Of a DNA stretch of 64,000 nucleotides, positions 19,717-60,165 are shown one piece after another. How positions within the stretch are numbered: the first letter of the stretch is position 1; every line of letters begins with the position of its first letter. Origin of the DNA: Thermus sp. (GTDB taxonomy: Bacteria; Deinococcota; Deinococci; Deinococcales; Thermaceae); NCBI RefSeq assembly GCF_040290245.1, contig NZ_PSMQ01000002.1, forward strand, positions 4,503 through 68,502, in the 5' to 3' direction. The notes beneath the pieces are model-generated. The model searched no databases, was not told the DNA's origin, and saw nothing but the letters and a program-made list of their open reading frames with translations. A program made the position numbers and the translations under genes.

Positions 19717-19793
<77 letters not shown>

Positions 19794-19797
19794 TCTC

Positions 19798-19873
19798 GCG
19801 GGAGTAGCTCAGTTGGTAGAGCATCGGCCTTCCAAGCCGAGGGTCGCGGGTTCGAGTCCCGTCTCCCGCTCCA
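19798..19873 (+). tRNA. tRNA-Gly(TCC)
   Basis: GCGGGAG acceptor stem, TCGGC-CTTCCAA-GCCGA anticodon arm, TTCGAG, CCA. Confidence 0.95.
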
Positions 19874-19907
19874 ACCCCGGGGCGGCCTCGGCCGCCCCCT
19901 TCTGTTT

Positions 19908-19983
19908 GGGCCCGTAGCTCAGTGGACAGAGCAGCCGCCTTCTAAGCGGTAGGTCGGGGGTTCGAATCCCTCCGGGCCCGCCA
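19908..19983 (+). tRNA. tRNA-Arg(TCT)
   Basis: GGGCCCG acceptor stem, GCCGC-CTTCTAA-GCGGT anticodon arm, TTCGAAT, CCA. Confidence 0.95.
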
Positions 19984-32865: not shown

Positions 32866-33585
32866 GTGATGGGTGGAGACCGCATCCTAAAAGACCGGGT
32901 TTTTCGCGTGGACCCCCTTCCTAAAGGACCGTACGAGGGGGTGGCGGTGGTCATCGATGTCATCCGGGCCACCACCACCGCAGGGGCCTTCCTCGAGGCC
33001 GGGGCCTTGGACCTCGTCCTTGCAAAGAGCCTGGACCAGGCCCGGGCCCTCCGCCTTCCGGGAGAGGTGCTGGCCGGGGAGAGGGGGGGGCTCAGGCCCG
33101 AAGGGTTTGACCTGGGAAACTCCCCTCAAGAGGCTTTCCGGGTCCGGGGCCGGCGGGTGGTCATGGCCACCACCAACGGCACCCGGGCCGTCCACGCGGC
33201 CCGGACGGCCCAGGCGCTCCTTCTGGGTTCCTTGCAAAACGCCCGGGCGGTGGCGGAGAAGGCCGCCCTTTTGGGGGAGGAGGTGACCCTGGTCTGCGCG
33301 GGCAAGGAAGGGGAGATGGGGCTGGACGACCTCTACACCGCGGGGGTCATCGGAAGGCGGCTTATGGAGCTGGGTTTCCGGGCGGAAGGGGAGACCGCCC
33401 ACCTCGCCCTCTTTCTTGCCGAAAACGACCCCCTGGCGGTTCTCCAGGCCTCAGAGGCGGCAAAGGCTTTGGACAGGGTGGGCCTCGGGGAGGATGTAGT
33501 CCTTTGCGCCCAGGTGGACGTTCACAAGGCGGTTCCGGTGCGCACCGGGTACCGGGACGGGGGTGTGGTCTTCGGGAGGGGGTGA
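32866..33585 (+). CDS. comB: 2-phosphosulfolactate phosphatase family
   Basis: VIDVIRATT, GERGG, FDLGNSP, TTNGT, DDLYTAG. Confidence 0.9.
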   Translation: MMGGDRILKDRVFRVDPLPKGPYEGVAVVIDVIRATTTAGAFLEAGALDLVLAKSLDQARALRLPGEVLAGERGGLRPEGFDLGNSPQEAFRVRGRRVVMATTNGTRAVHAARTAQALLLGSLQNARAVAEKAALLGEEVTLVCAGKEGEMGLDDLYTAGVIGRRLMELGFRAEGETAHLALFLAENDPLAVLQASEAAKALDRVGLGEDVVLCAQVDVHKAVPVRTGYRDGGVVFGRG

Positions 33586-34394
33586 TGCTGAAGCCGCTTC
33601 AGGAGGTGCTTCCCCCCAAAGGGCGCGCGGTGGGGGCGTTTGACGTGGTAGGCCTGGAGTGGGCCGAGGCGGTCTTAGAGGCGGCGGAGGGCCTAGACCT
33701 TCCGGTGATCCTGAGCGTTGCCCCCCATCTGGGGGGGCCTCCCATGGGGGCCCTGGCCCCGGGGCTTCGCCACCTGGCCGACTCGGTCCGCGTTCCCGTG
33801 GCCCTCCACCTGGACCATGGGGAGAGCCTCGAGGAGGTGGCCCGGGCCCTCCGCTTGAGCTTTACCGGGGTGATGCTGGACGGAAGCCACTTGCCCCTGG
33901 AGGAGAACATACGGCTTACCCAGCTCACCGTCCAGCTGGCCCGGGCCTATGGAGCGGGGGTGGAGGGGGAGGTGGGGGTAGTGCCTGGCCAGTACGGCCC
34001 GGGCAAAGGGGGAGAGGAGGCCCCCCAGTACACCGACCCCCAGGAGGCCCAGCGGTTTTACGAGGCCACAGGGGTGGATGCTTTAGCGGTGAGCATCGGG
34101 ACCCGGCACGGCCTTTACAAGGGGCCCGTCCGGCTTAACCTTCTGCTACTGAAGGAGCTTTCCCAAATCCCCGTCCCTCTGGTCCTTCACGGGGCCTCGG
34201 GGCTTAGGCCAGAGGAATACCGGGCCCTGATCGCGGGGGGCATTCGCAAGATCAACCTCTATGCCGAGCTGGCCCTCGAGGCGGCCCGGGCGCTCCGAGG
34301 GGGGGCAGGGGAGGATTACCTGGGTCTTATGGCAGGGGTCAAGGAGGCGCTCAAACGCCTGGCGGCCTCGAGGATGAGGTTATGGTGGGGCTGA
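33585..34394 (+). CDS. Class II fructose/tagatose-bisphosphate aldolase family, short second copy
   Basis: HLDHG, VMLDGS, VEGEVG, AVSIGTRHG, LVLHGASG, KIN; ATG overlaps comB TGA. Confidence 0.85.
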   Translation: MLKPLQEVLPPKGRAVGAFDVVGLEWAEAVLEAAEGLDLPVILSVAPHLGGPPMGALAPGLRHLADSVRVPVALHLDHGESLEEVARALRLSFTGVMLDGSHLPLEENIRLTQLTVQLARAYGAGVEGEVGVVPGQYGPGKGGEEAPQYTDPQEAQRFYEATGVDALAVSIGTRHGLYKGPVRLNLLLLKELSQIPVPLVLHGASGLRPEEYRALIAGGIRKINLYAELALEAARALRGGAGEDYLGLMAGVKEALKRLAASRMRLWWG

Positions 34395-35131
34395 GGGCGC
34401 TCCTTTTCGACCTGGACGGCACCCTGGCGGAGACGGAGGAGGCCCACCGGGCGGCCTTCAACCAGGCCTTTTTGGAGGCGGGCCTTCCCTTCTTCTGGGA
34501 CCAGCCCACCTACAAGGAACTCCTCTGGGTCACAGGAGGTAGGGAGCGGATCCGGCACTTCCTGGAAACCTGTCCCCCCTGCCCACGGCTTTCGGATGAA
34601 GAGATCGCCCGCATCCACCGGCGCAAAAACGAGCTCTTCGCCCAGTTCGTGCGGGAGGGTCTGCCCCTCCGGCCAGGGGTCCTAAGGCTTCTTAGGGAGG
34701 CGGAGGAGGCAGGGCTCACTTTGGGCCTTGCCACCACTACCAGTCCGGAGAACGTGGAGGCCTTCCTCGAGGGCCTGGGCTGGAGCCTCCGATTTAACCT
34801 GATCCTGGCAGGGGGCATCGTGCCCAGGAAGAAGCCCGATCCCGCCATCTACCGCCTGGCCCTGGAGCGGCTAAGCCTTTCCCCAGAGGAGGTCCTGGCG
34901 GTGGAGGACTCCCGAAACGGCCTTCTTTCCGCCCGGGGTGTGGGCATACCCACCCTCATCACCCCCAGCCTTTACACCCTGGATCAGGACTTCTCTGAGG
35001 CCCAGGCGGTTTTGGAGCACCTAGGTGAGCCCGAGGCCCCTGCTTTGGTCTACAGGGGGCCCGGACAGGGGGAAAGGAAGGTGGTGGACCTCGCCTATCT
35101 GGAGGAGGTGAGAGGATGGTCCAGCATCTGA
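34382..35131 (+). CDS. cbbY: CbbY-type HAD phosphatase (xylulose-1,5-bisphosphate phosphatase-like)
   Basis: DLDGTLAETE..HR.AFN.AF, LL.VTGGRERI cap motif, KKPDPAIY, EDSRNG. Confidence 0.82.
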   Translation: MVGLRALLFDLDGTLAETEEAHRAAFNQAFLEAGLPFFWDQPTYKELLWVTGGRERIRHFLETCPPCPRLSDEEIARIHRRKNELFAQFVREGLPLRPGVLRLLREAEEAGLTLGLATTTSPENVEAFLEGLGWSLRFNLILAGGIVPRKKPDPAIYRLALERLSLSPEEVLAVEDSRNGLLSARGVGIPTLITPSLYTLDQDFSEAQAVLEHLGEPEAPALVYRGPGQGERKVVDLAYLEEVRGWSSI

Positions 35132-35415
35132 TCCTCTTCAATGCGGAGGCAAGCCCTGAGGAGGTCAGGAGGATGGTGGAGGAGGCCCGCTCCGTTCTCC
35201 TCAAGATCCCGGGGGTCAGGGGGCTTTGCTTTGGGGAGGCCCTTTCCCCGAACGCCCGGTACCGGTACTGGCTTTCGGTTGCTTTTTCCGGCCCTGAGGT
35301 GGTGGAGGTCTACCGGGAGCATCCCCTGCACGTGGAGTTTGCCAACCGGGTCTTCCGGCCCATGGCCCAGGACCGGCTGACCACGGACTTTTTGGTGGAG
35401 GTGGAGGGGTGCTGA
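35116..35415 (+). CDS. Dabb (stress-responsive A/B barrel) protein
   Basis: VQHLILF, IPGV, Y..HP.H, D..TTDF pattern; 99 aa. Confidence 0.8.
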   Translation: MVQHLILFNAEASPEEVRRMVEEARSVLLKIPGVRGLCFGEALSPNARYRYWLSVAFSGPEVVEVYREHPLHVEFANRVFRPMAQDRLTTDFLVEVEGC

Positions 35416-35672
35416 GCTATAAGGAGGCGGAGGAAAAGGCGGAGCGGATTTTAGTGGACGGAATGGGGGAGGCTTTGATCCTGAAGCGGGAAGAGGGGTA
35501 TTATGCCCTGTACTTCTTCTTCGGCCTTTACGGGCGGAAGGCCCCAGACCCCGAGGAGGAGCCCGATTTCGTGGAGGGGCCCAAGGCCGAGCCGGACTTC
35601 CGGGACCCCTTTGACCAGGTGAAATGGCTGGAGCGGAACGGGTATACCGTATTCATCAACGAGTCCAAGTGA
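35409..35672 (+). CDS. Hypothetical protein, paralog A
   Basis: 87 aa, GTG start overlapping the Dabb stop; clearly similar to the next ORF. Confidence 0.75.
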   Translation: MLSYKEAEEKAERILVDGMGEALILKREEGYYALYFFFGLYGRKAPDPEEEPDFVEGPKAEPDFRDPFDQVKWLERNGYTVFINESK

Positions 35673-35683
35673 GGAGGTGGAGG

Positions 35684-35953
35684 ATGGAGTACGACGAGAT
35701 GCCCTACCAGGAGGCGCGGAAGATGGCGGTCAGGGTCTTGGAGGACGGGTATGGGGATGCGGTCATTCTCCAGGATGAGCACGGCTACTGGGCGCTCTAC
35801 TACTTTTACTGGGCCCAGACCCCACCCCCCCAGGCCCAGCCCCACTGGATGGAGGGCCCCGTGGCGGAAGCCTCTGCCCTTCGTACGCCTTACGAGATGA
35901 AGAAGTTCCTGGAGGAAAACGGGGAGTTTGACTTTGTCAACGACGTGGACTAG
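35684..35953 (+). CDS. Hypothetical protein, paralog B
   Basis: 89 aa from MEYDEMP with SD GGAGG; aligns with paralog A. Confidence 0.78.
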   Translation: MEYDEMPYQEARKMAVRVLEDGYGDAVILQDEHGYWALYYFYWAQTPPPQAQPHWMEGPVAEASALRTPYEMKKFLEENGEFDFVNDVD

Positions 35954-35974
35954 CTTTGCGGGTAGACTGACCCC

Positions 35975-36408
35975 ATGCGGCGGAATACATACCGAATACT
36001 CCAAGCCACGGAAACGGCGATCTATCTCTTTGCGGGGTTCCTCATCGCCTTGGGGGCGGTTCTTCTTCTAGGATCCACCCTGTGGGACGGGGTACGGGCT
36101 CTTCTACAAAGAGGGTATGTGGCTGCCGCGGTGGGGCTTCTGGACCGGATTCTTCTGGCCTTGATGCTGGCCGAGATCCTCTATACCCTGGTCCGTTTCG
36201 CCCGGGAGGGGGGCTTGCAGGCCGAGCCCTTTCTCCTGATCGGTATCATCGCGGCCGTGCGGCGGATGCTGGTCATCACCGCGGAGTCGGTGCACAAGGT
36301 CGACCTCAAGGACCCGGCCTTTTTAAACGTTTGGCTGAGCTTTTCGTCCTAGCCGTAAGCGTTTTGGCCTTTGCCTGGGCCATCCGGCTGGTCCGGGCTA
36401 GAGCATGA
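35975..36408 (+). pseudogene. PsiE-family membrane protein split by a -1 frameshift
   Basis: EPFL.IGIIA.VRR.L motif in 35975-36352; last TM helix LAELFVLAVSVLAFAWAIRL is in the -1 frame ending 36408. Confidence 0.7.
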
Positions 36409-37282
36409 GTTGGACCAGGGCCTCCGCGGCGGGGTTGGAAAGCGTCTTGGGATGGGTGAGCCAGAAGTAGCGCCGCAACTCTCCCACCGGGGGGCCGAGG
36501 CGGAGGGCTTTGAGGTTGCCCACCTTCAGGTTGGGCTGGATGACCACCCGGCTCACGATCCCGACCCCTGCGCCCGCCATGACCAGGCGCTTGGTCACCT
36601 CATTGTTGTCCGTGTAGAAGGCGGGGGTGATCTCTAAACCCGCCTGCTCAAAGGCTCGTTCCAGAACCCGCCAGGTCATGGATCCGGGTTTGCGCACCAC
36701 AAGGCTTTCCCGGGCCAGCCATTCCGGAGGGATCTCCTCCCAGGACGCCCAGGGGTGGTCCGGGGGGACGATAAGGACCAGCTCATCCTCGTAGAAGAGG
36801 TGCCGCACATACCCCTCCCAGTGCTCCACCCCTTCCAGAACGGCAAGTTCCAGCTCCCCGAGCCGGAGCCGTTCGGCCAGGCGTTCTGAGCTCCCGCTTT
36901 CCAAGTGCACCCTCACCCCAGGGTGGGCCTGGTGAAACTGGGCGAGGAAGGTGGGCACCACGTAGGTGGCCATGGTGGTGGCCGCCCCCAGCATCACCTG
37001 GCCGGTTTCCAGGCGGTCCCAGGCCCGGGCCACCAGCTGGAACTCCTCCAGGGCCTGTACCACCCGCCTGGCCTCCGGAAGAAGGGCTTCGCCCACCCGG
37101 GAAAGGACCAGGCTCCGCCCCCGGCGCTCAAAAAGGGGATGGCCCACCTGTTCCTCTAAAGCCCGGATGTACTGGCTTACCGCGGGCTGGGTGATGCCCA
37201 GGCTCAGCGCCGCCCGGCCCACCCCACCTTCTTCCACCACCGCCACAAAGACCCGGAGCGCAGCCGGATTAGGAAGCCGCAT
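36398..37282 (-). CDS. cbbR: LysR-family regulator, CbbR by position
   Basis: HTH TQPAVSQYIRALE, LysR substrate domain; divergent from the cbb operon. Confidence 0.8.
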   Translation of the reverse strand: MRLPNPAALRVFVAVVEEGGVGRAALSLGITQPAVSQYIRALEEQVGHPLFERRGRSLVLSRVGEALLPEARRVVQALEEFQLVARAWDRLETGQVMLGAATTMATYVVPTFLAQFHQAHPGVRVHLESGSSERLAERLRLGELELAVLEGVEHWEGYVRHLFYEDELVLIVPPDHPWASWEEIPPEWLARESLVVRKPGSMTWRVLERAFEQAGLEITPAFYTDNNEVTKRLVMAGAGVGIVSRVVIQPNLKVGNLKALRLGPPVGELRRYFWLTHPKTLSNPAAEALVQLML

Positions 37283-37364
37283 CCGTCCCTCTTTAAACAT
37301 GAACTTATGATACATGCCTACCCATATGATTGCAATAATGGGTTATCCCCCCTACCCTCGAGGC
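37283..37364. promoter_or_regulatory. cbbR/glpX divergent control region
   Basis: AT-rich intergenic with palindrome ATTGCAAT; CbbR boxes not individually resolved. Confidence 0.5.
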
Positions 37365-38348
37365 ATGCCTACGGTACCGCCCACGCGCAACCTGGCTTTG
37401 GACCTGATGCGGGCCACCGAAGCCGCCGCTTTGGCGGCGGCCCGCTGGGTGGGGCTGGGCAACAAGGAGGAGGGGGACCGGGCGGCGGTGGAGGCCATGC
37501 GCCTCCTTCTGAACACCGTGCCCTTCCGGGGCCGGGTGGTCATTGGAGAGGGGGAAAAGGACCAGGCCCCCATGCTCTACAACGGTGAGGAGGTGGGAAC
37601 GGGAGGGGTGGAGATGGACCTGGCGGTGGACCCGGTGGAAGGGACCCGGCTTCTGGCCTTAGGCCGGCCCGGGGCCATCAGCGTGATCGCCGCTGCCCCC
37701 AAAGGCACCCTTTTTAACCCGGGGCCGGGCTTTTATGCGGCCAAGCTGGTGGTGCCCCCTGAGGCCAAGGAGGCGATTGATCTTGCCCGTAGCCCCACGG
37801 AAAACTTAAAGGAAATCGCTAAGGCCTTGAGGAAGCCGGTGCGTGAGCTGACGGTCTTTGTCTTGGATAAGCCCCGCCATCAGGCGCTTATCGAGGAGAT
37901 CCGTGCCGCCGGGGCCCGCATTACGCTCCAAACGGATGGGGACGTGGCGGGTGCCTTGGCCGCGGTCCTGCCCGGCACCGGCGTGGATGTGCTCATGGGC
38001 ACCGGGGGGACCCCAGAGGGGGTGATCGCGGCGGTGGCGGTCCGGGCCCTGGGGGGTGGGATGCAGATGCGCCTGGACCCCCAGGGTGAGGAGGAGAAGT
38101 GGAATCTGATCCACGCGGGGTACAGCCTCGAAAGGGTCTATACCCTCGAGGAGCTCTGCGCCTGGGACGATACCCATTTTGCGGCGACCGGCATCACGGA
38201 TGGCCCCTTTTTAAAGGGGGTCCGGTACGAGGGAGGGCTGGCCAGAACGGAAAGCCTTCTCCTCCGGGGCGAGACCCGCACCTTGCGGCGGGTGGAGGCC
38301 TGGCACCGGATGGAGAAGCTTAGGGCCATCAGCGCGGTGCCCTACTAG
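37365..38348 (+). CDS. glpX: Class II fructose-1,6-/sedoheptulose-1,7-bisphosphatase
   Basis: RATEAAA, VVIGEGEKD.APML, AVDPVEGT, DGDV, GGTPEGV. Confidence 0.93.
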   Translation: MPTVPPTRNLALDLMRATEAAALAAARWVGLGNKEEGDRAAVEAMRLLLNTVPFRGRVVIGEGEKDQAPMLYNGEEVGTGGVEMDLAVDPVEGTRLLALGRPGAISVIAAAPKGTLFNPGPGFYAAKLVVPPEAKEAIDLARSPTENLKEIAKALRKPVRELTVFVLDKPRHQALIEEIRAAGARITLQTDGDVAGALAAVLPGTGVDVLMGTGGTPEGVIAAVAVRALGGGMQMRLDPQGEEEKWNLIHAGYSLERVYTLEELCAWDDTHFAATGITDGPFLKGVRYEGGLARTESLLLRGETRTLRRVEAWHRMEKLRAISAVPY

Positions 38349-39806
<1,458 letters not shown>

Positions 39807-39819
39807 AAGGAGGTCTAAG

Positions 39820-40251
39820 ATGCGGATTACCCAAGGGACCTTTTCCTACCTTCCTGACCTAACGGACGAGGAGATTCGGCTTCAGATCGAGTACATCATT
39901 AAGAACGGCTGGGCGGTTTCTATCGAGTATACGGACGACCCGAGCCCCTACAACGTCTACTGGAACATGTGGGGCCTGCCCATGTTTGACCTGGAAGACC
40001 CCGCGCCCGCCATGTACGAGTTCCAGAAGTGCCGGGAGGCCTTCCCCAACCACTACATCAAGATCAACGGCTACGACCCCTCGCCCATGTGGCAGGCCCA
40101 ACGGGTCTCCTTCATCGCCCACCGGCCCAAGGCCGAGGAGCCCGGTTTCCGGCTCCACCGCCAGCTCTACTCGGACGGCCGGAGGCTCAGGTACACCCTC
40201 GAGCCCTACGTGACCATGAGGCCTTCCGGACGACGCTACCAGGAGGAGTAG
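39820..40251 (+). CDS. cbbS: Rubisco small subunit, red-type
   Basis: MRITQGTFSYLPDLTD, YW.MWGLPMFD, C-terminal EPGF.L.RQ...GR..RYT hairpin extension; SD AAGGAGG. Confidence 0.97.
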   Translation: MRITQGTFSYLPDLTDEEIRLQIEYIIKNGWAVSIEYTDDPSPYNVYWNMWGLPMFDLEDPAPAMYEFQKCREAFPNHYIKINGYDPSPMWQAQRVSFIAHRPKAEEPGFRLHRQLYSDGRRLRYTLEPYVTMRPSGRRYQEE

Positions 40252-40254
40252 TCC

Positions 40255-41157
40255 ATGACCCCGCCCGTGGCCGACCTCAGCCAGCTCATGCAGGAAAGCC
40301 AGGTCACCGAGGTCCTGGACCGGCTGGACCGGGAGCTTGTGGGGCTTAGGCCGGTAAAACAGCGCATCCGGGAGATCGCTGCCTACCTGGTCGTCTCGAG
40401 GCTGCGCCAAACCCTGGGTCTGGTGGCGGAGAGGCCCGTCCTCCACATGGCTTTCACCGGTTCTCCGGGTACCGGGAAGACCACCGTGGCCATGCGCATG
40501 GCTACCATTTTGCACCGCCTGGGGTACATCCGGAGGGAGCACCTGGTGGTGGCCAGCCGGGATGACCTGGTGGGGCAGTACATCGGCCACACCGCTCCCA
40601 AGACCAAGGAGGTGTTGAAGCGGGCCATGGGCGGGGTTTTATTCATTGACGAGGCCTACAGCCTCTACCGGGCGGAGAACGAGCGGGACTACGGCCAGGA
40701 GACGATCGAGATCCTCCTCCAGGTCATGGAGAACCAAAGGGAGGACCTGGTGGTGATCCTGGCCGGGTACAAGGACCGGATGGATCAGTTCTTCCAGCTC
40801 AATCCAGGGATGCGCTCCCGGATCGCCCATCACATCGAGTTTCCCGACTACACCCTGGAGGAACTCATCGAAATCGCCAAACTCATGCTCCAGGCTCAGA
40901 ACTACGAGATGGACGAGGCGGCGCTCCAGGCTTTCCGGGAGTATTTGCAAAGGAGGATGCGCCTGCCTGGTTTTGCCAACGCTCGGAGCGTCCGCAACGC
41001 GATAGACCGGTTCAAGCTCCGGCAGGCCTACCGGCTTTTTACCAAGGGGGGCCAGGTTTCAGCGGAGGACCTAAGGCGCATTGCCGCGGACGACATCTAC
41101 CAAAGCAGCGTCTTCCGCACCCCCTTGCCGGAGGAAGGAGGAAAGCATGCCCAATAG
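40255..41157 (+). CDS. cbbX: Red-type Rubisco activase CbbX
   Basis: [48 protein letters not shown]. Confidence 0.96.
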
Positions 41158-42112
41158 GCCGTTTATGCTGGGCATCGCCGGGGACTCGGGAGCAGGGAAG
41201 ACCACCATCTCCAGTGGGATCGCCCGGCTTTTGGGTGTGGAAAGGACCACGCAGATCTGCGTGGACGACTACCATAAGTACGACCGGAAGCAGCGGGCCG
41301 CCTTAGGCATTACCCCTTTGAATCCGGAGTGCAACTACCTGGACATCCTGGAGCAGCACGTCCGGCTTCTGGCCCAGGGAGAGCCCATTCTGAAACCCGT
41401 TTACAACCATTCCACGGGCACTTTTGACCCTCCAGTCTACATTCCCCCACCCAAAGCGGTGGAGGAGATGGGCCGTCTGATCCCTCGAGTGGTGATTCTG
41501 GAGGGCCTCCTGACCCTGTATACCCTCGAGCTCAGGAGCCGTTACCACCTTAAGGTTTACCTGGACCCTGAGGAGGAGCTGAGGCGGGAGTGGAAGATCA
41601 GGCGGGACGTGGCCAAACGGGGCTACACACCGGAGCAAGTGGTGGCGGACATCGAGCGCCGTATGCCCGACTCCCAGGCGTTCATCTGGCCCCAGAAGGA
41701 GCATGCGGACATCGTGGTCCGCTTCTACCGCCCACCAGGGTATGATCCGGAAAACCCCAGTACCCTCAACGTTCGCATCGCCCTTCGGCGCACCCTGCCC
41801 AAGCTCGACCTTACGGAGGTCCTCCACCTGGCGGACGAGGAGGAGGCTCTTCTCCGTCTCGAGGCCCGCAAAAACGCGGATGTTTTGGACATCACTGGGA
41901 ATGTGAGTGCGGAGAAGGCCCAGGCCCTGGAGCGGGTCATCTGGGAACACCTGGGGCCTCACGCGGAGCAGTTCAACCCAGAGTACATCGGCACCTTCTG
42001 GGACAAGGCCGGGCAGAGTTACCCCCTGGCCCTCACCCAGCTCATCATCGCGTATTATTTGGTCAAGATGCGGGAGCTGGCCATCCAGAAGGGAGTGCTT
42101 CACTATGCCTAA
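41147..42112 (+). CDS. prk: Phosphoribulokinase
   Basis: [35 protein letters not shown]; position within the cbb operon. Confidence 0.93.
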
Positions 42113-42779
42113 ACCCCTCTTCGCCCCCTCCGTCCTCACCGTGGACTTTGCCCGTCTGGGCGAGGCTATCCGCGAGGCGGAGGAGGCGGGGGTGGACTGG
42201 ATCCACCTGGACGTGATGGATGGGCGGTTTGTTCCCAACCTCACCTTCGGCCCTCTGGTGGTGGAGGCGGTGCGCCGGGTGACCTCCTTGCCCCTGGACG
42301 TCCACCTGATGATCGTGGAGCCTGAGCGGTACCTCAAGGACTTCGCCATGGCGGGGGCGGACTGGATTACCATCCACGTGGAGGCCACCTACCACCCCCA
42401 CCGGGGGGTTCAGCAGGTCAGGGAGCTGGGGAAGAAGGCGGGGCTGGCCGTTAACCCTGGGACACCCCTGGAGGCTTTTGAGCCCCTCCTGCCTGAGTTG
42501 GACCTGGCCCTTCTCATGAGCGTGAACCCGGGGTTCGGAGGGCAGAGGTACATCCCCTCTTCCACCGCGCGACTCAAGGCGCTTAAAGAGATGCGGGACC
42601 GGCTGAACCCGGCCTGCCTGGTGGAGGTGGACGGGGGGGTGAACGAGAAGACCCTCCCTTTGGTCCTCCAGGGGGGGGCGGACGTGGTGGTGGCGGGCAG
42701 TGCGCTGTTCAACGAGCGACCGGTGGCCGAAAACCTGAAGCGGCTTAAGGAGGTGGTCCATGCCTTTGGTCGTGGGTAA
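42105..42779 (+). CDS. rpe: Ribulose-phosphate 3-epimerase
   Basis: APSVL, HLDVMDGRFVPNLTFG, DVHLMI, MSVNPGFGGQ, VDGG. Confidence 0.96.
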   Translation: MPKPLFAPSVLTVDFARLGEAIREAEEAGVDWIHLDVMDGRFVPNLTFGPLVVEAVRRVTSLPLDVHLMIVEPERYLKDFAMAGADWITIHVEATYHPHRGVQQVRELGKKAGLAVNPGTPLEAFEPLLPELDLALLMSVNPGFGGQRYIPSSTARLKALKEMRDRLNPACLVEVDGGVNEKTLPLVLQGGADVVVAGSALFNERPVAENLKRLKEVVHAFGRG

Positions 42780-43683
42780 GGAAATCCTGGACAAGGCGAG
42801 GCGGGAAGGGTATGCCGTTCCCAGTTTCAATACGAACAACCTCGAGATCACCCAGGCCATCCTCGAGGTGGCGGAGGAGATGCGGGCCCCGGTCTTCATC
42901 CAGATCTCGGATGGGGCGAGGAAGTATGCGGGGATGGAAAACCTGGCCAACTTGGTCAAGGACATGGCGAGCCGGGTCAGGGTGCCCGTGGCCCTCCACC
43001 TGGACCACGGGGCCGACTTCAAGATGGTGATGCAGGCCATCCGGGCGGGCTTCACCAGCGTAATGATCGATGCCTCCCACCACCCCTTTGAGGAGAACGT
43101 GGCCGAGACGAAAAGGTGCGTGGAGGCCGCCCACGCGGTAGGGGTGAGCGTGGAGGCGGAGCTGGGCCGGCTCCAGGGCATCGAGGACAACATCCAGGTT
43201 TCCGAAGCGGAGGCGTTTCTGACCGACCCTGGTGAGGCCGAGCGGTTTGTGGAGCTTACAGGAGTCGACTACCTGGCCATCGCCATCGGAACGAGCCACG
43301 GCGCCTACAAGGGGAAGGGAAGGCCGTATATAGACCATAAACGCCTGGAGGAGATCGCCAGACGGGTCCATATCCCCCTGGTCCTCCACGGGGCGAGTGG
43401 GGTGCCCGGATGGCTTAAGGAAAGGCTTCTGGCCACGGGGGCCGAGCTCAAAGAGGCCACGGGCATTCACGACGAGGACATCAAAAAGGCCATTCCCAAC
43501 GGCATCGCTAAGATCAACATCGACACCGACCTCCGCCTGGCCATGACCTTGGGCATCCGGGAGGTGGTGACGCAAAACCCCAAGGAGTTTGACCCTCGGA
43601 AGATCATCGGAAAGGGGCGGGAATACCTCAAAGAGGTCATCCGGGAAAAGTTCCTCCTCATGGGGACGGCGGGCCGGGCCTGA
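42760..43683 (+). CDS. fba: Class II fructose-bisphosphate aldolase
   Basis: FNTNN, HLDHG, MIDAS, VEAELG, AIGTSHGAYK, VLHGASG, KINIDTD. Confidence 0.95.
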   Translation: MPLVVGKEILDKARREGYAVPSFNTNNLEITQAILEVAEEMRAPVFIQISDGARKYAGMENLANLVKDMASRVRVPVALHLDHGADFKMVMQAIRAGFTSVMIDASHHPFEENVAETKRCVEAAHAVGVSVEAELGRLQGIEDNIQVSEAEAFLTDPGEAERFVELTGVDYLAIAIGTSHGAYKGKGRPYIDHKRLEEIARRVHIPLVLHGASGVPGWLKERLLATGAELKEATGIHDEDIKKAIPNGIAKINIDTDLRLAMTLGIREVVTQNPKEFDPRKIIGKGREYLKEVIREKFLLMGTAGRA

Positions 43684-48266: not shown

Positions 48267-48321
48267 GCGCCCTGGCCCCCTTTTTGCGCTTGTTTGACCA
48301 TCTGTGGCAACCCCGGCGGCG

Positions 48322-49300
48322 TCAGGGAGAGAGAGGTCCAGCATTCCCGTTCCCACTGCATTCGAGGAATAGGGTAGTGGCCTGGCCGTGGACTTGAGCT
48401 TGGCCTCCAGCTGGACTGGGTCCAGGCTGGGATCGGCCGAGAGCCAGACCGCCATCGCCCCTGCCACCAAGGGGGTGGCGAAGGAGGTCCCGGTGCAGCT
48501 GCCCATCCCCCCTCCGGGGGTGAGGCAGGTGAGGTTGGTGCCTGGGGCGGATAGGTCCAGATGGGCGCCCTGGGTGCTATAGAGGGCTGGGGCCCAGCCA
48601 GAGGGGGTGGCAGGTGCGGGGTCAAGGGCCCCCACCGCCACCAGCCCGGCCAAGGGGAAGGCGGCAGGGTAGTGGGCTGGGCTTCCGTACTGTCCCTGCT
48701 TCCCCGCTGCCGCAGCCACAGGGTACCCTTTGACGAGGGCTAGCCCCAGGACGCTTTCCAGGAGCGCCACTGGGGTGTCTCCGCCCAGGCTGAGATTGAG
48801 GACGGTGGGCGGGGGGCGTGGTCCAATACCCAGCATGCCCCCCCACCACCCAGCTGGCGCGGCAGGTGCCGGTCTGGTCGCAAACCCGTAGGGGAAGGAT
48901 CTGCGCGTCTGGGGCCACCCCCAGGACCAGCCCTGCTACACCGGTCCCGTGGCCGCCTGGGAAGGCGTCCTGAGGGAGCGTATCGTTCTCCACGAAATCG
49001 TACCCGGGGATCTGGGGGAGGGCCGGGTCCATCCCGGTGTCCAAAACGGCCACTTTGACCCCCCGTCCTGTATGGCCCCGGCCGTGGGCCCAGGGGGCCC
49101 CCACCTCCTTGGGGCCGTCCAGGCCATCGAAGGACCAGAGAGTTTCCAGGTCGGCTTTGTACGCGGGGTCTAGGGCCTCGAGCTCGACCAGGGCCTGGCC
49201 TAAAGGTCGGTCAAACCCCACCTTGACGAGCTCGAGGCCGCAGGTGCGGCCAAGGTCGTACCCCTCCCGGATCTGGAACCCCGCGGTTTTTAGCGCGGCT
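48322..49300 (-). pseudogene. S8 (subtilisin-like) peptidase remnant
   Basis: VAVLDTG, GHGTGVAG, NLSLGG and GTSFATP split by frameshifts near 48835; no start or signal peptide; likely stop now out of frame after a CT run; bounds approximate. Confidence 0.8.
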
Positions 49301-52726: not shown

Positions 52727-53605
52727 TTATTCCCAGAAAACCTTTAAAAAGTCGTCCCCTCGAGGTGATCCGGCCAGTTTGGGGGGCTGTCCTTGGGTGT
52801 AGATGCCGCTTTGCCCCTCGAAGACGAGGCCCAAAAAGCGGCCATTCAGCATAGGGTTCAGGAGAAGGCGGAGGTTTTCCCGCCCCAAGAGCCGATTGGC
52901 CATCGCCTCCACCCAGACTTCCCCCTCCTTCCGGGCCGGATTCTTGGGCCAGGGCCGGTCCCAGGGGGCGGGGTTGGCCGAGGGGACGAGGAGGAGTTCG
53001 GCCCCCTGGGCGTCCAGCCGCTCCACGTGGCTTTGAAAAAAGGCATCCAGGCAGATCAGGACCCCCATCCGGCCGTACCGGGTCTGGACCAGGTGGGGGC
53101 CGAAGGACCCCCGGTTTAAAAACCCCTCCGCCGAACTGAGGCGCATCTTGGGAATACGGGCCAGGACCTGGCCTTGGGGATTGAGGAAGAGGGCCAGGTT
53201 GTAAAACCCCACCCCCCTCATGAACCGGCCTAGGGAGAGCTCCTCATCGTAGAAGGGCGTGAGGAGGCTACCCGCTAGGAGGTAGGCGTTGAAAGCCCGG
53301 GCGGCCTCGCAGAAGACCTCCTTCCACAGGTGGAAGGCCTTCTTTGCCCGCTTCCAAGGGAAGAGGGGCCCCTCCCTGTGCAGGTGGTAAAGAAGCGCCC
53401 GCGAGAGGGTCGGGGCCTCCAGGACGGGTTCGGCCTCGAGGTAAAAGAGAAGGGGAAGGGCGAAGGCCTCGGGGAAAGCCGCCAAGCGGGGGGTATCCTC
53501 GCCCCGAAACCCCTCTTCCAGGAGGCTGAAGACCCTTTTTCTAAAGGTTTCCTGGTTCAGGTAGTCCTGGGGGTGGATCTCCGTCTGGAGGACGAGAAGG
53601 GTCAC
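52727..53605 (-). CDS. Carbon-nitrogen hydrolase (nitrilase) family
   Basis: Catalytic E-K-C: FPE, PKMRL, ICLD. Confidence 0.82.
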   Translation of the reverse strand: MTLLVLQTEIHPQDYLNQETFRKRVFSLLEEGFRGEDTPRLAAFPEAFALPLLFYLEAEPVLEAPTLSRALLYHLHREGPLFPWKRAKKAFHLWKEVFCEAARAFNAYLLAGSLLTPFYDEELSLGRFMRGVGFYNLALFLNPQGQVLARIPKMRLSSAEGFLNRGSFGPHLVQTRYGRMGVLICLDAFFQSHVERLDAQGAELLLVPSANPAPWDRPWPKNPARKEGEVWVEAMANRLLGRENLRLLLNPMLNGRFLGLVFEGQSGIYTQGQPPKLAGSPRGDDFLKVFWE

Positions 53606-53988
53606 GCCCCCAGTCTACTCATCGCCTGCTGGAGGCGGCTTAAGGCTTCCTGGGCCGCACCTTCCGGAAGACCCGGAAGAAGAGGAAAGAAGGCCAAGGG
53701 GTTTTGGAGAAGGATCTCCACCTCTTCCCCCACCTGTCTTAAGACCACGTTGCAGGGCATGAGAACCCCCACCTGCCGGTTTTTCTCCAGCGCTTCCTTG
53801 GCCAGATGGGGGTTGCAGGCCCCCAGGATGAGGTAGGGCTCCATCGTTGCCCCTATCTTGGCCTTCAGGACCTCCGAGACCGGGATCTCGCTCAGGATGC
53901 CGAAGCCTTCCTCCTGAAGCGCCTCCACCACCCTGGTTCTGACTGCCTCGAGGCTTCCTCTAATCCGGTATGTGAGCGCCGCTTCCAT
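53602..53988 (-). CDS. DUF302 protein
   Basis: GFGILSEI, Y.ILGACNP, G..MPCNV. Confidence 0.88.
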   Translation of the reverse strand: MEAALTYRIRGSLEAVRTRVVEALQEEGFGILSEIPVSEVLKAKIGATMEPYLILGACNPHLAKEALEKNRQVGVLMPCNVVLRQVGEEVEILLQNPLAFFPLLPGLPEGAAQEALSRLQQAMSRLGA

Positions 53989-53998
53989 GTTTCGCCTC

Positions 53999-54700
53999 CT
54001 ATAGGTTTTTCACCCCGATATACACGCCGATGGCCAACAGGAAAAGGACGAAGCCCTGCCGGAGCCGCTCCTGGGGCAGGTGGAGGGAAAGCCTTCCCCC
54101 GAGGAGGCTCCCTAGTATCCCCACCAGGGTGAGGGAGAGGACAAGCCCCCAGTGGATGGAGTCTTGCTGGGCAAGGGAGGCGGTGTGCTTGTAGCCCCCT
54201 ACGACGGCGTTAAGGGTGACAATGGCCAGGCTTGTCCCCACCGCCCGGTGCATGGGAAGGCCCCCCAGAAGGACCAAGGCGGGCACGATCAAAAACCCGC
54301 CCCCCACGCCCACGAACCCGGTGAGGGCCCCCACCATCGTTCCCTCTAAAGCCGCCTTCCAGAAAGCCCTTCTCCCCTGGGGCCTCAGCCTGGGGGGGCG
54401 GGCCATGAGGTAGGCGGCGAACAGCATCACGCCCGCGAAGACCAGAAGCTGGACCTGGCCTGTGACAAAGCTGGGCAGGCCGAACCCGAGGAGGCTCTTC
54501 CAGTCCACCAGGCCCCTTAGGGCGTAGGGCAGCACCCCCACCAGGCTGATCCCTCCCACGATGAGGAGGCTTTCCGCGATGGCCAGCTTCGGAGGCTCTC
54601 CCAGGAGGTAGACTAAGATCGGTACGGTGAGAATAGAGCCTCCTGAGCCCAGAAGGCCCAGGGAGAGGCCAATGAGAAGGGCGCCTAGCCAAGCCAGCAT
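53999..54700 (-). CDS. TauE/SafE (TSUP) sulfite-exporter family, possibly with an internal deletion
   Basis: GLLGSGGSILTVP, GFVGVGGGFLIVP, AVGTSL; 233 aa from MLAWLG. Confidence 0.85.
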   Translation of the reverse strand: MLAWLGALLIGLSLGLLGSGGSILTVPILVYLLGEPPKLAIAESLLIVGGISLVGVLPYALRGLVDWKSLLGFGLPSFVTGQVQLLVFAGVMLFAAYLMARPPRLRPQGRRAFWKAALEGTMVGALTGFVGVGGGFLIVPALVLLGGLPMHRAVGTSLAIVTLNAVVGGYKHTASLAQQDSIHWGLVLSLTLVGILGSLLGGRLSLHLPQERLRQGFVLFLLAIGVYIGVKNL

Positions 54701-55350
54701 TACTTTTCCACCGGTAGCCCCGCCCCCAGCCAGGCGTAGGTGCCGCCCTCGAGGTTCACCACCTTTTCCGGATCGAACCCCTGGTTGACCAGAAACTCCG
54801 CGGCCAGGCCTGAGCGGTTGCCCGAGTTGCAGACGAGGAGGAGTATACGGTCCTTGGGGAGCTCGGAAAGCCTTTGGGGAAGGGCGGAAAGGGGGATGTT
54901 CACCGCCCCTGGGATGTGTCCTCCCGGGTACTCCCACGTCTCCCGAACGTCCACCACAAGGGCCCCTTCTTCCATCAAGCGCGAGGCCTCCTGAGGGCCC
55001 ACCTCCTTGAAGGAGGTGGCAGCATACACCTCCTCCACTGGGGTTGTGTCCACAGGAAGGCCCGTCCGGTACCAGCGAACGAGGCCGCCCTCCAGGTTCA
55101 GGAGGTTGGTGTAGCCCTGCTGGGCGAGCCAGGCCGCGGCCTGCTCGCTGCGGTTCCCCGTGCGGCAGTAGAGGACCACTGGGGTGTCCTTGGGAAGCTC
55201 CTGGTAGCGGGCCAAAAACTCGGAGAGGGGGAGTAGCTTTGCGCCAGGGATGCGGGCCTGGGCGTACTCCTCTACCTCCCGGACGTCCACGAAGGGTACA
55301 CCCTGGTCGTAAAGGGTCTTCGCCTCTTCTGGGGTTAGGTTCTTGACCAT
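54700..55350 (-). CDS. Tandem-domain rhodanese (sulfurtransferase)
   Basis: Two domains with active loops CRTGNRS and CNSGNRS; DVRE and HIPGA. Confidence 0.9.
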   Translation of the reverse strand: MVKNLTPEEAKTLYDQGVPFVDVREVEEYAQARIPGAKLLPLSEFLARYQELPKDTPVVLYCRTGNRSEQAAAWLAQQGYTNLLNLEGGLVRWYRTGLPVDTTPVEEVYAATSFKEVGPQEASRLMEEGALVVDVRETWEYPGGHIPGAVNIPLSALPQRLSELPKDRILLLVCNSGNRSGLAAEFLVNQGFDPEKVVNLEGGTYAWLGAGLPVEK

Positions 55351-56777
55351 CAGGCCGTCACCTCCAGCGCCTTGTCCACTGGGAAGCCCCGTTCCATCCA
55401 GGCCTTGATCCCGCCGGTGAGATTGTACACGTTCCTAAAGCCGTGGGCGAGCAGGGCGCTGATGGCGGTGCTGGAACGGTCTCCACCCAGGCAGTGGACG
55501 AGGATGGGCTTGTCCTTGGGGAGGCGGTGCAGGTTGGCCACCACCCGGCCCGCGTGGATGTTGACCGCGTTCGGGATGTGGCCCGCGAGGTACTCGTCCC
55601 GGCCCCGCACGTCCAGCACGAAGGCCCCCTGCTCCCACATCTTCCTGGCCTCTTCCGCGGTCACCTGGGGGACCACCTCCAGCTCCCCTTCCGCATACCC
55701 CTCGAGGCTCGGGATATACCCCACCACCTGGTCCAGGCCGATGCGGACCAGGCCCCGGGTGAGTTCCTCCACCCGGTGGGGCTCGGCAAGGAGGACAAGG
55801 GGCCGGTCGTAGGGGAGAAGCCACCCAGCCCAGGTGGAGAAGTTCTTCCCCGCGGGGATACTGAGGGCCCCCGGGAGGTGCCCCCCGGCGAAGGCGAACT
55901 TGTCCCGGGTGTCCACGAGCACCGCGCCCTCCTCTATGGCCTTTTGGAACTGGAACCGGGTGAGCCGAGCAGGGTGGGGCACCCCGCCCAGAAGGGGCAT
56001 CCCGTCGCGGTTCATCCGCTTCATCTCTTTGAAGTAGGTGGGGGCTTCGGGCTGGCCCTGGAGGAGGGCCTTTACGAACCCTTCCTCATCCTCCTTTTCC
56101 AGGTACTCCGCCCACCAGGCGTGTCGGCGTTCGTACCCCAAGGTGGTGGCGGGAAGGGCCCCCAAGGCCTTGCCGCAGGCCGACCCTGCCCCGTGGCCAG
56201 GCCAGATCTGCAGGTGGTCGGGAAGGGTGAGGAAGCGCTTCAGGCTCTGGAACAGGGCCTTTGCTCCCGGCTTTGCCGTACCCTTGAACCCCGCGGCCTC
56301 CTCCAAAAGGTCGGGCCGCCCCACCTCCCCCACGAAGAGGAAGTCCCCTGTGAGGGCGAGAAGGGGCTCCTCCGTCACCGCCCCGTCCGCCACCAGGAAG
56401 GCGATGTGCTCCGGAGTGTGGCCGGGGGTATGCAGGACCTTCACCCGGATGTTCCCGACCCGGAACTCGTCGTTGTCCTTGACCAGGACGTACTTAAACC
56501 CCTCGAGGCCCTTGTACTTCCAGTTCTCATCCCCCTCGTCCGAGAGGTACAAGGTGGCCCCCGTCTGGGCCGCAAGCTCCCGGGCCCCGGAGAGGTAGTC
56601 CGCGTGGATGTGGGTCTACGCCACGGCCACGATGCGGAGCCCCAACGTTTCCGCAAGCTCTAGATAGGTGTCCACGTCCCGCTTGGGATCCACCACCAGT
56701 GCCTCTTTCGTGGCGGGGCAGCCCAGGAAGTAGCTCATCTGCGCGAGGCCTTCCTCGTAGATTTGTCGGAATACCAT
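55350..56777 (-). pseudogene. MBL-fold persulfide dioxygenase-rhodanese fusion (CstB/Blh-like) with in-frame TAG
   Basis: MVFRQIYEEGLAQMSY...VAVA*THIHADYLSG; TAG at 56616-56618; remainder intact (HTPGHTPEH, PGHGAGSACG, HCLGGDRS). Confidence 0.88.
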
Positions 56778-57973: not shown

Positions 57974-58756
57974 TGGATGCGGTTCAGATTGGCCCCATCG
58001 CCCTTTCCTGGGCCAGGGTTCAGGTGGCCCTGGCCCTTTTGGGCATGGTCCTTCTCCGAAGTGTATGCCCGAAAGGTGGACCGGAGGCTTTCCAGCTGGG
58101 CCTGGAACGTCATTCTCGTGGGGCTTCTTGCCGCCCGGCTAGCCTTTGTCCTTCGCCACGCCGCCACCTACGCCCAGGACCCCCTTTCCGCCCTTTATGT
58201 ATGGCAGGGGGGATTCGACGCCTGGGCTGGGGTGGTGGCCGGGGGGGTGTATACGCTTATGGCCTTACCCAAGAACCTCTGGAAGTATGCGCTTTTGGCT
58301 GCGGGGGTGGCGGGGCTCTTCTATGGCCTTTTGAGCCATAGGCGGCCCCAGGAGGCCCGGTTGCCGAACCTTACCCTCGAGCGCCTAGGCGGGGAGCCGG
58401 TGGAGCTCAGGGCCTTTCTGGGGAAGCCCCTGGTGGTGAACGCCTGGGCCACCTGGTGCCCCCCCTGCCGGAGGGAACTCCCCATGCTCCTCGAGGTGGC
58501 CAAAAGGACCCCCGAGGTCCGGTTTGTCTTTGTAAGCCAGGGGGAGGGCCCGGAGGTGGTGCGGCGCTTTCTTGAGGAACGGAACCTGAGCATGGAGTGG
58601 GCCCTTCTGGACCCCTCTACCCGGTTGTCCGAGGCCTTGAACATCCAGGGCCTGCCCACCACGTTCTTCTTTGACCGGGAAGGACGGCTCATCCTCCGGC
58701 ACATGGGGGAGCTTTCCGAGGCCCTCCTTACGGATTACCTCCGGGCTTTGCGCTAG
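57970..58756 (+). pseudogene. TlpA-family disulfide reductase with membrane N-terminus, frameshifted
   Basis: Start frame MMDAVQIGP shifts near 58050 into the frame carrying WATWCPPC and GLPTTFF. Confidence 0.72.
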
Positions 58757-60165
58757 GGGGTTCCGATCCGGTGCTCGCCGTCGTAGGTGAGGAGGACGGG
58801 CTTTTCCTTTAAAACGCTCCTCAGGTGGACCGGCCGGCCCCAGAGGCGGTGGAGGTTGGCCAAAACCGCCTGGGTCCGCCTGAGGTCCAGCCCTACCCCC
58901 TCGTAGGCGTGCTCCAGAAGGAGCTCGCCCCGGTTCTTGTGGTTGGCGTCCACGAGCCAGATGGTGGGGTAGCCCCCGTTGGTGAGGCGGAAGAGGAGGC
59001 GGCGCTTCGCCTCTTCAAATTTGTCCAGGTCCTTGGGGGCCTGGTTGCGCCGGAGGGCGAACTCAGGGGTGAGAAACTCCTCGAGGAAGCCCAGATCGGT
59101 GTACACGGTCCGCACCTGGAAGATTTTCTCCCGCCCCCTGGACGTGGGGCGTTCATAGTTGAGCTTCTCTCCCAGGGGGAGGCGCTCGTACTCCTCCCCA
59201 AACCGCCCCTTGTCCCAGCGTTCCTCGATCTCCTGGAATAGGTGATAGCCCAGCCGGTAGGGGTTGAACCCCTGGGGGGTAAGAAGCCCCGCCTGGAGCT
59301 CCGCAAACTCCAAGGCCTCCTCGGGGCTTAGGAGAGGGAGAAGAATGCGGGTATGCCAGAAGGTGGCCCAGCCCTCGTTCATGACCTTGGTGGCTGCCTG
59401 TGGAGCGAAGTAGAGGCTTTCCTCCCGGATGATCTCCAGGATGCTTCGCTGCCAGGGGGCAAGGGGGGCGTGCCGGGCCAGGAAACCCAGGATGTCCCGT
59501 GTGGGTCTGGGGGGGAGGGGTTTCTGGCTTGCCCCCTCCTCCGCTTCCTTGGGGGGTTCGGCGGGGGGGTTGACATAGGGGTCCAGGTAGGGGCGGACCC
59601 GGAGGCGGCCTTGGGGTAGGGGGGTTTCCTCAAGGTGTTCCCCCGACGGGGAAGCAGCCTCCTCTAAGCGGCGGATATAGGGGGCGTGAGGGTCGATGAG
59701 GTTTTCCAGGGAGAGGGCCAGGTCCAAAAACTCCTCCACCGCCCGTGCCCCGTGCCTGTCCATGGCCCTGGCCACGTAGGCTGCGTGGTGGGCCATCTCG
59801 TTCAGCATGTCCTTGGGGATGGGCCGGAAGGCCAGGTTGTTCTTGAAGAAGTCCGCGTGGGCAAAGACGTGGGCCATGACCAGCTTCTGGACCAGGGGGG
59901 TGTTGCCCTTTAGGAGGTAGGCGTAGACGGGTTCGGTGTTGACCACCAGCTCGTGGATCCGGCCCAGGCCGTAGCGGTAAAGCTCCCGGTAGCGGAGGTA
60001 CTCGCTTCCGAAGCGCCAGTGGGGGTAGCGGCGGGGAAACCCCCCGTAGGCGGCCAGCATGGCCATCTCCTCCGCGTCCACCTCCTCAAAGACCACCGGG
60101 GCAAAGGAAAGGCCCATCTCCTCTGCCTTGGCTTGCAAGATTCCGGCCCAGTCTTTGAGGTTCAT
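58753..60165 (-). CDS. spoVR: SpoVR family protein
   Basis: GGFP.RYPHWRFG, HELV.N, HVFAHADFF, KVMNEGWA. Confidence 0.92.
   Translation of the reverse strand: MNLKDWAGILQAKAEEMGLSFAPVVFEEVDAEEMAMLAAYGGFPRRYPHWRFGSEYLRYRELYRYGLGRIHELVVNTEPVYAYLLKGNTPLVQKLVMAHVFAHADFFKNNLAFRPIPKDMLNEMAHHAAYVARAMDRHGARAVEEFLDLALSLENLIDPHAPYIRRLEEAASPSGEHLEETPLPQGRLRVRPYLDPYVNPPAEPPKEAEEGASQKPLPPRPTRDILGFLARHAPLAPWQRSILEIIREESLYFAPQAATKVMNEGWATFWHTRILLPLLSPEEALEFAELQAGLLTPQGFNPYRLGYHLFQEIEERWDKGRFGEEYERLPLGEKLNYERPTSRGREKIFQVRTVYTDLGFLEEFLTPEFALRRNQAPKDLDKFEEAKRRLLFRLTNGGYPTIWLVDANHKNRGELLLEHAYEGVGLDLRRTQAVLANLHRLWGRPVHLRSVLKEKPVLLTYDGEHRIGTP

Follow-up and report, generated by a model that had tools for sequence, protein, structure and literature searches.

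We analysed a 64,000-nt stretch of DNA from a Thermus sp. (positions 4,503 to 68,502 of contig NZ_PSMQ01000002.1, assembly GCF_040290245.1; hereafter the window, whose own numbering is used throughout) that carries a cluster of Calvin–Benson–Bassham (CBB) cycle genes, referred to here as the cbb cluster. On the minus strand lies cbbR (36398–37300), which encodes a LysR-family regulator of 300 aa (294 aa from an alternative start at 37282) with the HTH_1 and LysR_substrate domains. It is separated by a presumed divergent promoter/operator region (37301–37364) from seven genes on the plus strand. The first of these is glpX (37365–38348), encoding a class II fructose-1,6-/sedoheptulose-1,7-bisphosphatase (327 aa; TIGR00330, 355 bits, cut-off 259). 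The Rubisco genes follow, namely cbbL (38367–39806) for a form I red-type large subunit of a Thermaceae clade (479 aa; NF003252, 763 bits, cut-off 438) and cbbS (39820–40251) for a red-type small subunit with a C-terminal extension (143 aa; PF00101, 129 bits, cut-off 27). Next to them are cbbX (40255–41157), encoding a red-type Rubisco activase of the AAA+ ATPase family (300 aa; TIGR02880, 472.5 bits, cut-off 459.25), and prk (41147–42112), encoding a phosphoribulokinase (PRK) that resembles the PDB entry 9QKO (321 aa; NF005655, 404 bits, cut-off 236). The cluster closes with rpe (42105–42779) for ribulose-phosphate 3-epimerase (224 aa; TIGR01163, 283 bits, cut-off 213) and fba (42760–43683) for a class II fructose-/sedoheptulose-bisphosphate aldolase (307 aa; TIGR01859, 387 bits, cut-off 343). 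The coordinates of cbbS, prk and rpe are those of gene calls on contigs that carry an identical large subunit (RbcL).

All eight proteins of the cluster matched their own families across the whole profile length in Pfam and NCBIfam, and the curated cut-offs were exceeded by seven of them, the exception being CbbR. The translations revealed no internal stops or frameshifts in any of the eight genes, and the active-site motifs of RbcL, including the carbamylated lysine and QFGGGT, aligned residue for residue with solved form IC and ID enzymes (5NV3, 1BXN, and 1BWV). An initial annotation of this DNA had described an intact cbbR and glpX-cbbL-cbbS-cbbX-prk-rpe-fba with catalytic motifs present and no frameshifts; both statements held, with the strands unchanged, the coordinates essentially so, and full-length family matches throughout. 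The intergenic gaps are 3–18 nt long (cbbS starts 14 nt past the cbbL stop), and overlaps of 11, 8, and 20 nt join cbbX/prk, prk/rpe, and rpe/fba, respectively. Strong GGAGG-type ribosome-binding sites precede cbbL (GGGAGGAG), cbbS, cbbX, prk, and fba; rpe has none, and its start overlaps the prk stop (ATGCCTAA). The tight spacing, the overlaps, and the ribosome-binding sites are together the signature of one translationally coupled operon, which is presumably transcribed as a unit.

When the genes were compared with their orthologues in Thermus filiformis, the ratio of nonsynonymous to synonymous substitution rates (dN/dS) was 0.07–0.13 for all eight (0.10 for glpX), with dS of 0.37–0.62. The cluster is therefore kept by selection and is no chance set of open reading frames (ORFs). 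The same values bear on the possibility that it is a silent relic in the course of being lost, comparable to the truncated cbb remnants that some strains of T. scotoductus are reported to carry. Loss and reacquisition of the cluster are frequent in Thermaceae (PMC13019369), and one metagenome-assembled genome (MAG) with an identical RbcL (L081; GCA_040290375.1, contig PSMZ01000007) has glpX uncalled and the aldolase gene upstream of cbbR split into pieces of 76 and 139 aa. The disruption in that MAG is probably an assembly error rather than biology, both genes being intact in the window. With eight full-length ORFs and intact motifs, such low dN/dS values, and a regulatory region that is conserved as described below, we consider a relic very improbable.

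RbcL carries both Rubisco large-subunit domains and the active-site residues, and the small-subunit gene lies directly downstream of cbbL, as in a form I carboxylase. A Rubisco-like protein (form IV) was considered and is ruled out by the intact motifs; the models for Rubisco-like proteins and MtnW scored far below their cut-offs. Among solved structures, RbcL was best matched by the form IC enzymes of Rhodobacter sphaeroides (5NV3) and Cupriavidus necator (1BXN) and then by the form ID enzyme of Galdieria (1BWV), at 760–777 bits, whereas cyanobacterial, plant, and form IA structures reached 650–684 bits, about 100 bits under the red-type matches. The alignment extends to within 2–3 residues of the C-terminus of 1BXN. 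The small subunit (RbcS) begins MRITQGTFSYLPDLTDEEI, and its residues 1–140, including the C-terminal extension, align with the red-type chains 1BXN chain I and 25HN_B; with green-type small subunits, the alignment stops at about residue 105. CbbX shares 67% identity with its R. sphaeroides counterpart (3SYK/3SYL), and the Walker A, Walker B, and pore-loop segments are conserved between the two. The equivalog match, the AAA+ motifs, and the place after cbbS are those of a red-type activase. The form IC/ID matches of RbcL, the extension of RbcS, and the downstream CbbX all bear out the red-type Rubisco of the initial annotation, which had also proposed a phylogeny of RbcL.

Such a phylogeny was built by neighbour joining (NJ) from 62 sequences with 100 bootstrap replicates, covering Thermaceae, the closest relatives from genomes and metagenomes, and four reference sequences from the PDB; it is a distance tree, rooted on form ID only and without a green-type outgroup. 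The Thermaceae RbcL sequences were monophyletic with 100% bootstrap support, and the split between the form IE-like sequences of Terrabacteria plus Thermaceae on one side and proteobacterial form IC plus form ID on the other was also supported at 100%. The Thermaceae clade thus stands on the actinobacterial (IE) side, apart from proteobacterial IC. The IE-like sequences without Thermaceae were monophyletic in just 9% of the replicates, and therefore the sister group of Thermaceae is not fixed by this tree. Within the same set, RbcL of the window is 83–97% identical to other Thermaceae, 71–78% to IE-like sequences, 71–75% to form IC, and about 70% to form ID. In the literature, the lineage of Thermus Rubisco is named the form I 'Thermus group' (PMC12999727), which agrees with the placement in our tree.

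The PRK of the window is recognised by a match to NF005655 above the cut-off, by its P-loop, and by its location in the cbb operon. It is 48% identical over its full length (residues 1–307) to 9QKO which, with 9QKN, is its nearest solved relative; both were deposited as 'cyanobacteria specific' phosphoribulokinase, and no publication describing 9QKO was found in the literature searched. The proteobacterial model PRK15453 gave just 46 bits, and canonical cyanobacterial and plant PRK were matched only across the N-terminal ~210 residues. By these sequence matches, the enzyme is of the 9QKO subfamily and not of the proteobacterial class I type. Its P-loop reads GDSGAGKTT and lacks a cysteine where plant PRK has its regulatory one; its only cysteines are at positions 38 and 62. 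Among the matches listed, a 9QKO-like PRK with 40–49% identity follows cbbX in many loci of Actinomycetota, Thermoleophilia, and Acidobacteriota, and a type with 25–31% identity occurs in Nocardia loci and in those proteobacterial form IC loci that have a PRK nearby. Since the 9QKO-like type is common in cbb loci of Actinomycetota and Acidobacteriota, it is not confined to cyanobacteria.

The longest ORFs of glpX and cbbR would start at 37314 and 37315, respectively, and overlap head to head; these are therefore unlikely to be the real starts. We aligned the intergenic region of the window with those of T. filiformis, T. brevis PS18, one Thermaceae MAG, and Allomeiothermus silvanus. The conserved start of glpX in the five Thermaceae is the ATG at 37365, which yields a GlpX of 327 aa; gene calls for T. 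filiformis and for one metagenome contig with an identical RbcL give the same length. From this alignment, glpX most likely starts at ATG 37365 and cbbR at ATG 37300 (or, alternatively, at 37282). A near-perfect palindrome, ATGATTGCAATAAT, lies at 37326–37339; the three Thermus share it exactly, and it can still be recognised in the Thermaceae MAG and A. silvanus. Inside it, TTGCAA (37330–37335) reads alike on both strands. On the plus strand, this candidate −35 element is located 17 nt upstream of a candidate −10 element, TACCCT (37353–37358), which is the window version of a CTAnnnT motif invariant in the five Thermaceae and lies 6 nt before the glpX ATG. On the minus strand, TTGCAA is 17 nt upstream of TATCAT (37312–37307), and this pairing was found independently by a promoter consensus scan. 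The arrangement suggests that two divergent promoters share one palindromic −35 element, overlapped by a LysR-type T-N11-A dyad, and that the palindrome is a putative CbbR operator. The glpX and cbbR mRNAs may be leaderless, with 5' ends that would coincide with or adjoin the start codons at 37365 and 37300, respectively.

The regulator itself scored 140 bits with the CbbR model NF045990, against an equivalog cut-off of 450 bits, and other LysR models scored equally well or better. We use the name cbbR only because the divergent position of the gene is conserved and because it is co-induced in PS18. That position is kept in all Thermaceae loci examined, and the protein is 95% identical to that of T. 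filiformis, with dN/dS of 0.07. For the cbbR of the initial annotation, domains and position confirm a divergent LysR regulator, at a level below an equivalog match to CbbR.

The host of the cluster is an uncultured hot-spring Thermus whose nearest named relative is T. filiformis. All relatives of its RbcL at 89–99% identity are from Thermus. Compared with T. filiformis, RbcL is 97% identical, LepA 90%, and the other cbb proteins 90–95%, and the DNA is colinear through both flanks and the cluster at about 85% identity over 18 kb. As the DNA identity is only about 85%, the window organism is a different species. The synteny on both flanks and the exclusively Thermus relatives of RbcL support the Thermus-like genome of the initial annotation. 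An RbcL identical to that of the window is carried by an NCBI MAG and by ENA and JGI metagenome contigs, and a variant with 97% identity occurs at high depth in hot-spring metagenomes. Because the window itself derives from metagenome contigs, the cluster could in principle be foreign to the Thermus genome and joined to it by mis-assembly or binning. We judge the chance of this to be next to negligible. The GC content is uniform (62–67%), the flanks and cluster are colinear with the genome of an isolate, the same junctions occur in independent NCBI, ENA, and JGI assemblies, and the hot-spring metagenome contigs have even depth across the whole region. A plasmid origin was likewise ruled out by megablast of 33–47 kb against PLSDB, which gave just short Rubisco or ABC-transporter matches (at most 56 nt with the plasmid of A. 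silvanus); the locus looks chromosomal and shares its synteny with T. filiformis.

We propose, with a probability of roughly 85%, that the cluster is a functional CbbR-regulated CBB operon that would confer facultative chemolithoautotrophy on this uncultured hot-spring Thermus; its structure is read from the sequence, and expression and CO2 fixation are carried over from orthologues. By analogy with T. brevis PS18, facultative chemolithoautotrophy is the most likely lifestyle of the window organism. CbbR probably binds the intergenic palindrome and turns on glpX-cbbL-cbbS-cbbX-prk-rpe-fba during lithoautotrophic growth. PRK would then produce ribulose-1,5-bisphosphate, which the red-type L8S8 Rubisco would carboxylate, and CbbX would remodel Rubisco that tightly binding sugar phosphates have inhibited. 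The cycle-specific regeneration steps would fall to GlpX, Fba, and Rpe, and housekeeping genes elsewhere in the genome would provide Pgk, Gap, Tpi, Rpi, and Tkt. An electron donor is likewise presumed for the window organism.

When essentially all plausible ORFs of the 64 kb were scanned with Pfam, none proved to be a gene for tkt, gap, pgk, tpi, rpi, carbonic anhydrase, carboxysome, sox, or hydrogenase functions. The initial annotation had reported the first seven of these as lacking from the window, had deduced that the operon must borrow core enzymes, and had found no visible electron source. The scan agrees with it: electron-donor genes were not found in the window, and the borrowing holds there, for tkt more strongly than in other Thermaceae with tkt at the locus.

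Several points weigh against the proposed autotrophy. The 64 kb has no sox or hydrogenase genes, so that the window by itself bears out neither an energy source nor a complete cycle. The transketolase gene that heads the module upstream of cbbR in some relatives (see below) is gone from the window and from T. filiformis, where an opposite-strand LepA gene is found instead. The one RNA run that had words in common with cbbL (9% of them) gave only spurious matches of 18–21 nt and so no support for expression or activity in the window organism; DNA runs confirmed the presence of the cluster in hot-spring metagenomes, and nothing more. For some Thermus strains that carry Rubisco, autotrophic growth has never been demonstrated (PMC12999727). 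The initial annotation had made its reading depend on expression and CO2 incorporation; since both are positive in orthologues (PMC13019369), this point is answered for the orthologues and not for the window organism.

A rival explanation is that the cluster is expressed without autotrophic growth and serves as a CO2-dependent electron sink, a mixotrophic carbon supplement, or a route for pentose-phosphate recycling during heterotrophic or lithoheterotrophic growth. Most Rubisco-carrying Thermus strains are described solely as heterotrophs (PMC12999727), and the locus has neither its own tkt nor electron-donor genes within the window. On the other hand, PRK, CbbX, and the regeneration enzymes are combined in one regulated operon, which is the architecture of autotrophy, the operon is under strong purifying selection, and its orthologues in four Thermus strains sustain autotrophic growth (PMC13019369). 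We therefore regard a purely non-autotrophic role as unlikely and favour a functional operon for facultative chemolithoautotrophy.

Immediately upstream of cbbR, the window contains an accessory module (32866–36352) that had gone unmentioned in the initial annotation. All of its genes are on the plus strand. They encode, by family match, a ComB-like protein of the 2-phosphosulfolactate phosphatase family (32866–33585) and a second, divergent class II aldolase paralogue (33585–34394), followed by a HAD-IA phosphatase (34382–35131) that weakly resembles phosphoglycolate phosphatase and beta-phosphoglucomutase, all below cut-off. Next come a Dabb protein (35116–35415, family match), two small ORFs (35409–35672 and 35684–35953) that belong to no Pfam or NCBIfam family, and a PsiE-like membrane protein (35975–36352, family match). 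The module adjoins cbbR in the same order in T. filiformis, T. brevis PS18, T. oshimai, and one Thermaceae MAG. It is also present on the plasmid of A. silvanus, with the ComB-like gene relocated after fba, and it is headed by transketolase in PS18, T. oshimai, and A. silvanus. This synteny suggests that the module may be functionally part of the CBB system. One MAG contig (L090) carries tkt-ComB-HAD-Dabb-orf-orf-DeoC without Rubisco within 7 kb, which shows that the link between module and cbb operon is not a strict one. The aldolase paralogue is the only module protein with values in the proteome supplements of PS18, where it ranks 543 under autotrophic aerobic and 1422 under heterotrophic conditions (PMC13019369).

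The paralogous small ORFs (87 and 89 aa) lie in tandem and share 44% identity. Their homologues form 16 clusters, all from Thermaceae and all named 'hypothetical protein'; none was found in the 79 non-Thermaceae loci compared, and scans with Pfam and NCBIfam gave no match. Their dN/dS values against T. filiformis are 0.09 and 0.21, which indicates purifying selection. A confident AlphaFold model (pLDDT 89, pTM 0.81) shows a small alpha/beta domain, for which Foldseek gave no PDB match at E<0.001. A ComB-like gene also lies directly beside cbbL in at least six loci of the Solirubrobacterales/Thermoleophilia type (L021, L030, L038, L063, L067, and L071), a recurrence in sequence data that suggests a functional link. 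No publication tying ComB-type phosphatases to Rubisco was found in the literature searched. Archaeal ComB hydrolyses 2-phosphoglycolate as well. A part for the ComB-like protein in the disposal of phosphoglycolate or inhibitors is a lead and not a result; judged from sequence, the ComB-like and HAD proteins may be phosphoglycolate or sugar-bisphosphate phosphatases. We tentatively raise the idea, itself rather doubtful, that the ComB-like, HAD, Dabb, and two small proteins are auxiliary factors of the thermophilic CBB cycle that have so far gone unrecognised. Possible roles would be metabolite repair, by phosphatases acting on 2-phosphoglycolate or misfire sugar bisphosphates, or, for the small proteins, functions associated with Rubisco.

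Elsewhere in the window, two ORFs of transketolase size (663 and 670 aa) were rejected as tkt and encode a CCG/Fe-S oxidoreductase and a PrkA kinase instead. A trio of genes for PrkA serine kinase, a DUF444 (YeaH-like) protein, and a SpoVR-like protein is located at 58753–63256 on the minus strand of this non-sporulating Thermus; we take it to be a conserved stress or starvation operon. A sulfur-handling cluster at 53602–56552 on the minus strand encodes a DUF302 protein, a TauE/SafE sulfite exporter, a tandem-rhodanese protein (54700–55350), and a 400-aa protein in which a metallo-beta-lactamase (persulfide-dioxygenase-like) domain is fused to rhodanese. It comprises no Sox system, yet it hints at reduced-sulfur metabolism in the window organism. 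The gene for a subtilisin-type S8 peptidase (48267–49221, minus strand) is split over two frames, with positions 1–98 of the Pfam profile in one and 113–288 in the other; the frame changes between ~48622 and 48836, and the gene is either a pseudogene or misassembled. Three clustered tRNA genes (Pro-TGG, Gly-TCC, and Arg-TCT) lie at 19717–19983 on the plus strand.

We compared the cluster with described systems, for which Thermaceae loci were collected by exact-protein matches and the form IC and IE loci were taken from among the matches listed. The form IC operons of C. necator and R. sphaeroides share with it a red-type L8S8 Rubisco, CbbX, and a divergent CbbR, and they provide the best solved-structure matches for RbcL, RbcS, and CbbX. 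They differ in gene order; in the IC loci compared, a class I PRK (25–31% identity over 0.7 of the length) lies upstream of cbbL, and their RbcL stands on the opposite side of the 100%-bootstrap split. The form IE clusters of Actinobacteria and other Terrabacteria contain, among the matches listed, the nearest RbcL sequences outside Thermaceae (71–78%). They have the same core order cbbL-cbbS-cbbX-prk and the same PRK subfamily (40–49% identity over the full length), and several have a ComB-like gene beside cbbL. In these clusters, however, glpX, rpe, and fba are usually elsewhere or reordered, and the two small ORFs were not found.

The closest counterparts are within Thermaceae. A CBB cluster was reported in Thermus sp. 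NMX2.A1 by Muller et al. (2016; PMC5015936), the first published description in Thermus. Sokolova et al. (2026; PMC13019369) have since described exactly such a LysR gene with a seven-gene cbb cluster in species of Thermus (18), Meiothermus (4), Calidithermus (1), and Allomeiothermus (1). In that study, T. brevis PS18 showed sustained autotrophic growth on thiosulfate together with 14C fixation, and autotrophy was also found in T. caldilimi, T. oshimai Uz8, and T. scotoductus Uz79. The initial annotation, recalling NMX2.A1, had called the pathway rare rather than new; this was correct, but it understated how fully the pathway has by now been described, with 24 Thermaceae species and demonstrated autotrophy (PMC13019369). 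In the proteome of PS18, the ranks under autotrophic aerobic versus heterotrophic conditions were 31 versus 1239 for RbcL, 22 versus 1362 for RbcS, 105 versus 1333 for GlpX, and 295 versus 1365 for LysR, and PRK (rank 47) and CbbX (rank 88) were not detected under heterotrophic conditions (PMC13019369).

The order of the cbb genes is identical in the window, T. filiformis, T. brevis PS18, T. oshimai, A. silvanus, and one Thermaceae MAG. With PS18 and the other Thermaceae clusters, the window shares the divergent LysR gene, the same seven-gene order, and the upstream module, and its proteins are 76–92% identical to those of PS18. The two differ at the edges: a transketolase gene heads the upstream module in PS18 whereas the window has LepA on the opposite strand, and the downstream neighbours are not the same. 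T. filiformis (JPSL02000037, GCA_000771745.2) has the same genes and flanks, from a 633-aa ORF and LepA to a phosphonate-type ABC transporter, and lacks tkt as well; it differs in that a further 389-aa ORF, together with transposase-associated genes, is inserted after fba and before the gene for a Cys/Met pyridoxal-phosphate enzyme (L086, 15404–19705). NMX2.A1 carries the same cluster, with an RbcL 92% identical to that of the window. In the paper on that strain, PRK was not annotatable and a gene annotated as epimerase was argued to be PRK (PMC5015936), whereas the PRK of the window is a clear match to NF005655.

The cluster of the window is thus of a kind already known. With it, the likely facultative chemolithoautotrophs gain a further uncultured Thermus lineage. 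The cluster also supports the recent view of Thermaceae as possible primary producers in hot springs, and its red-type Rubisco, CbbX, and PRK are candidates for thermostable enzymes in biochemical work. New biology is possible only from the side observations, that is, the accessory module with its two small proteins, the ComB-like phosphatase beside Rubisco in Actinomycetota, the shared palindrome, and the PRK subfamily. Relative to the published description, the PRK subfamily, the ComB-like link, and the small ORFs are minor details, and we conclude that the window is a further instance of the described Thermaceae system.

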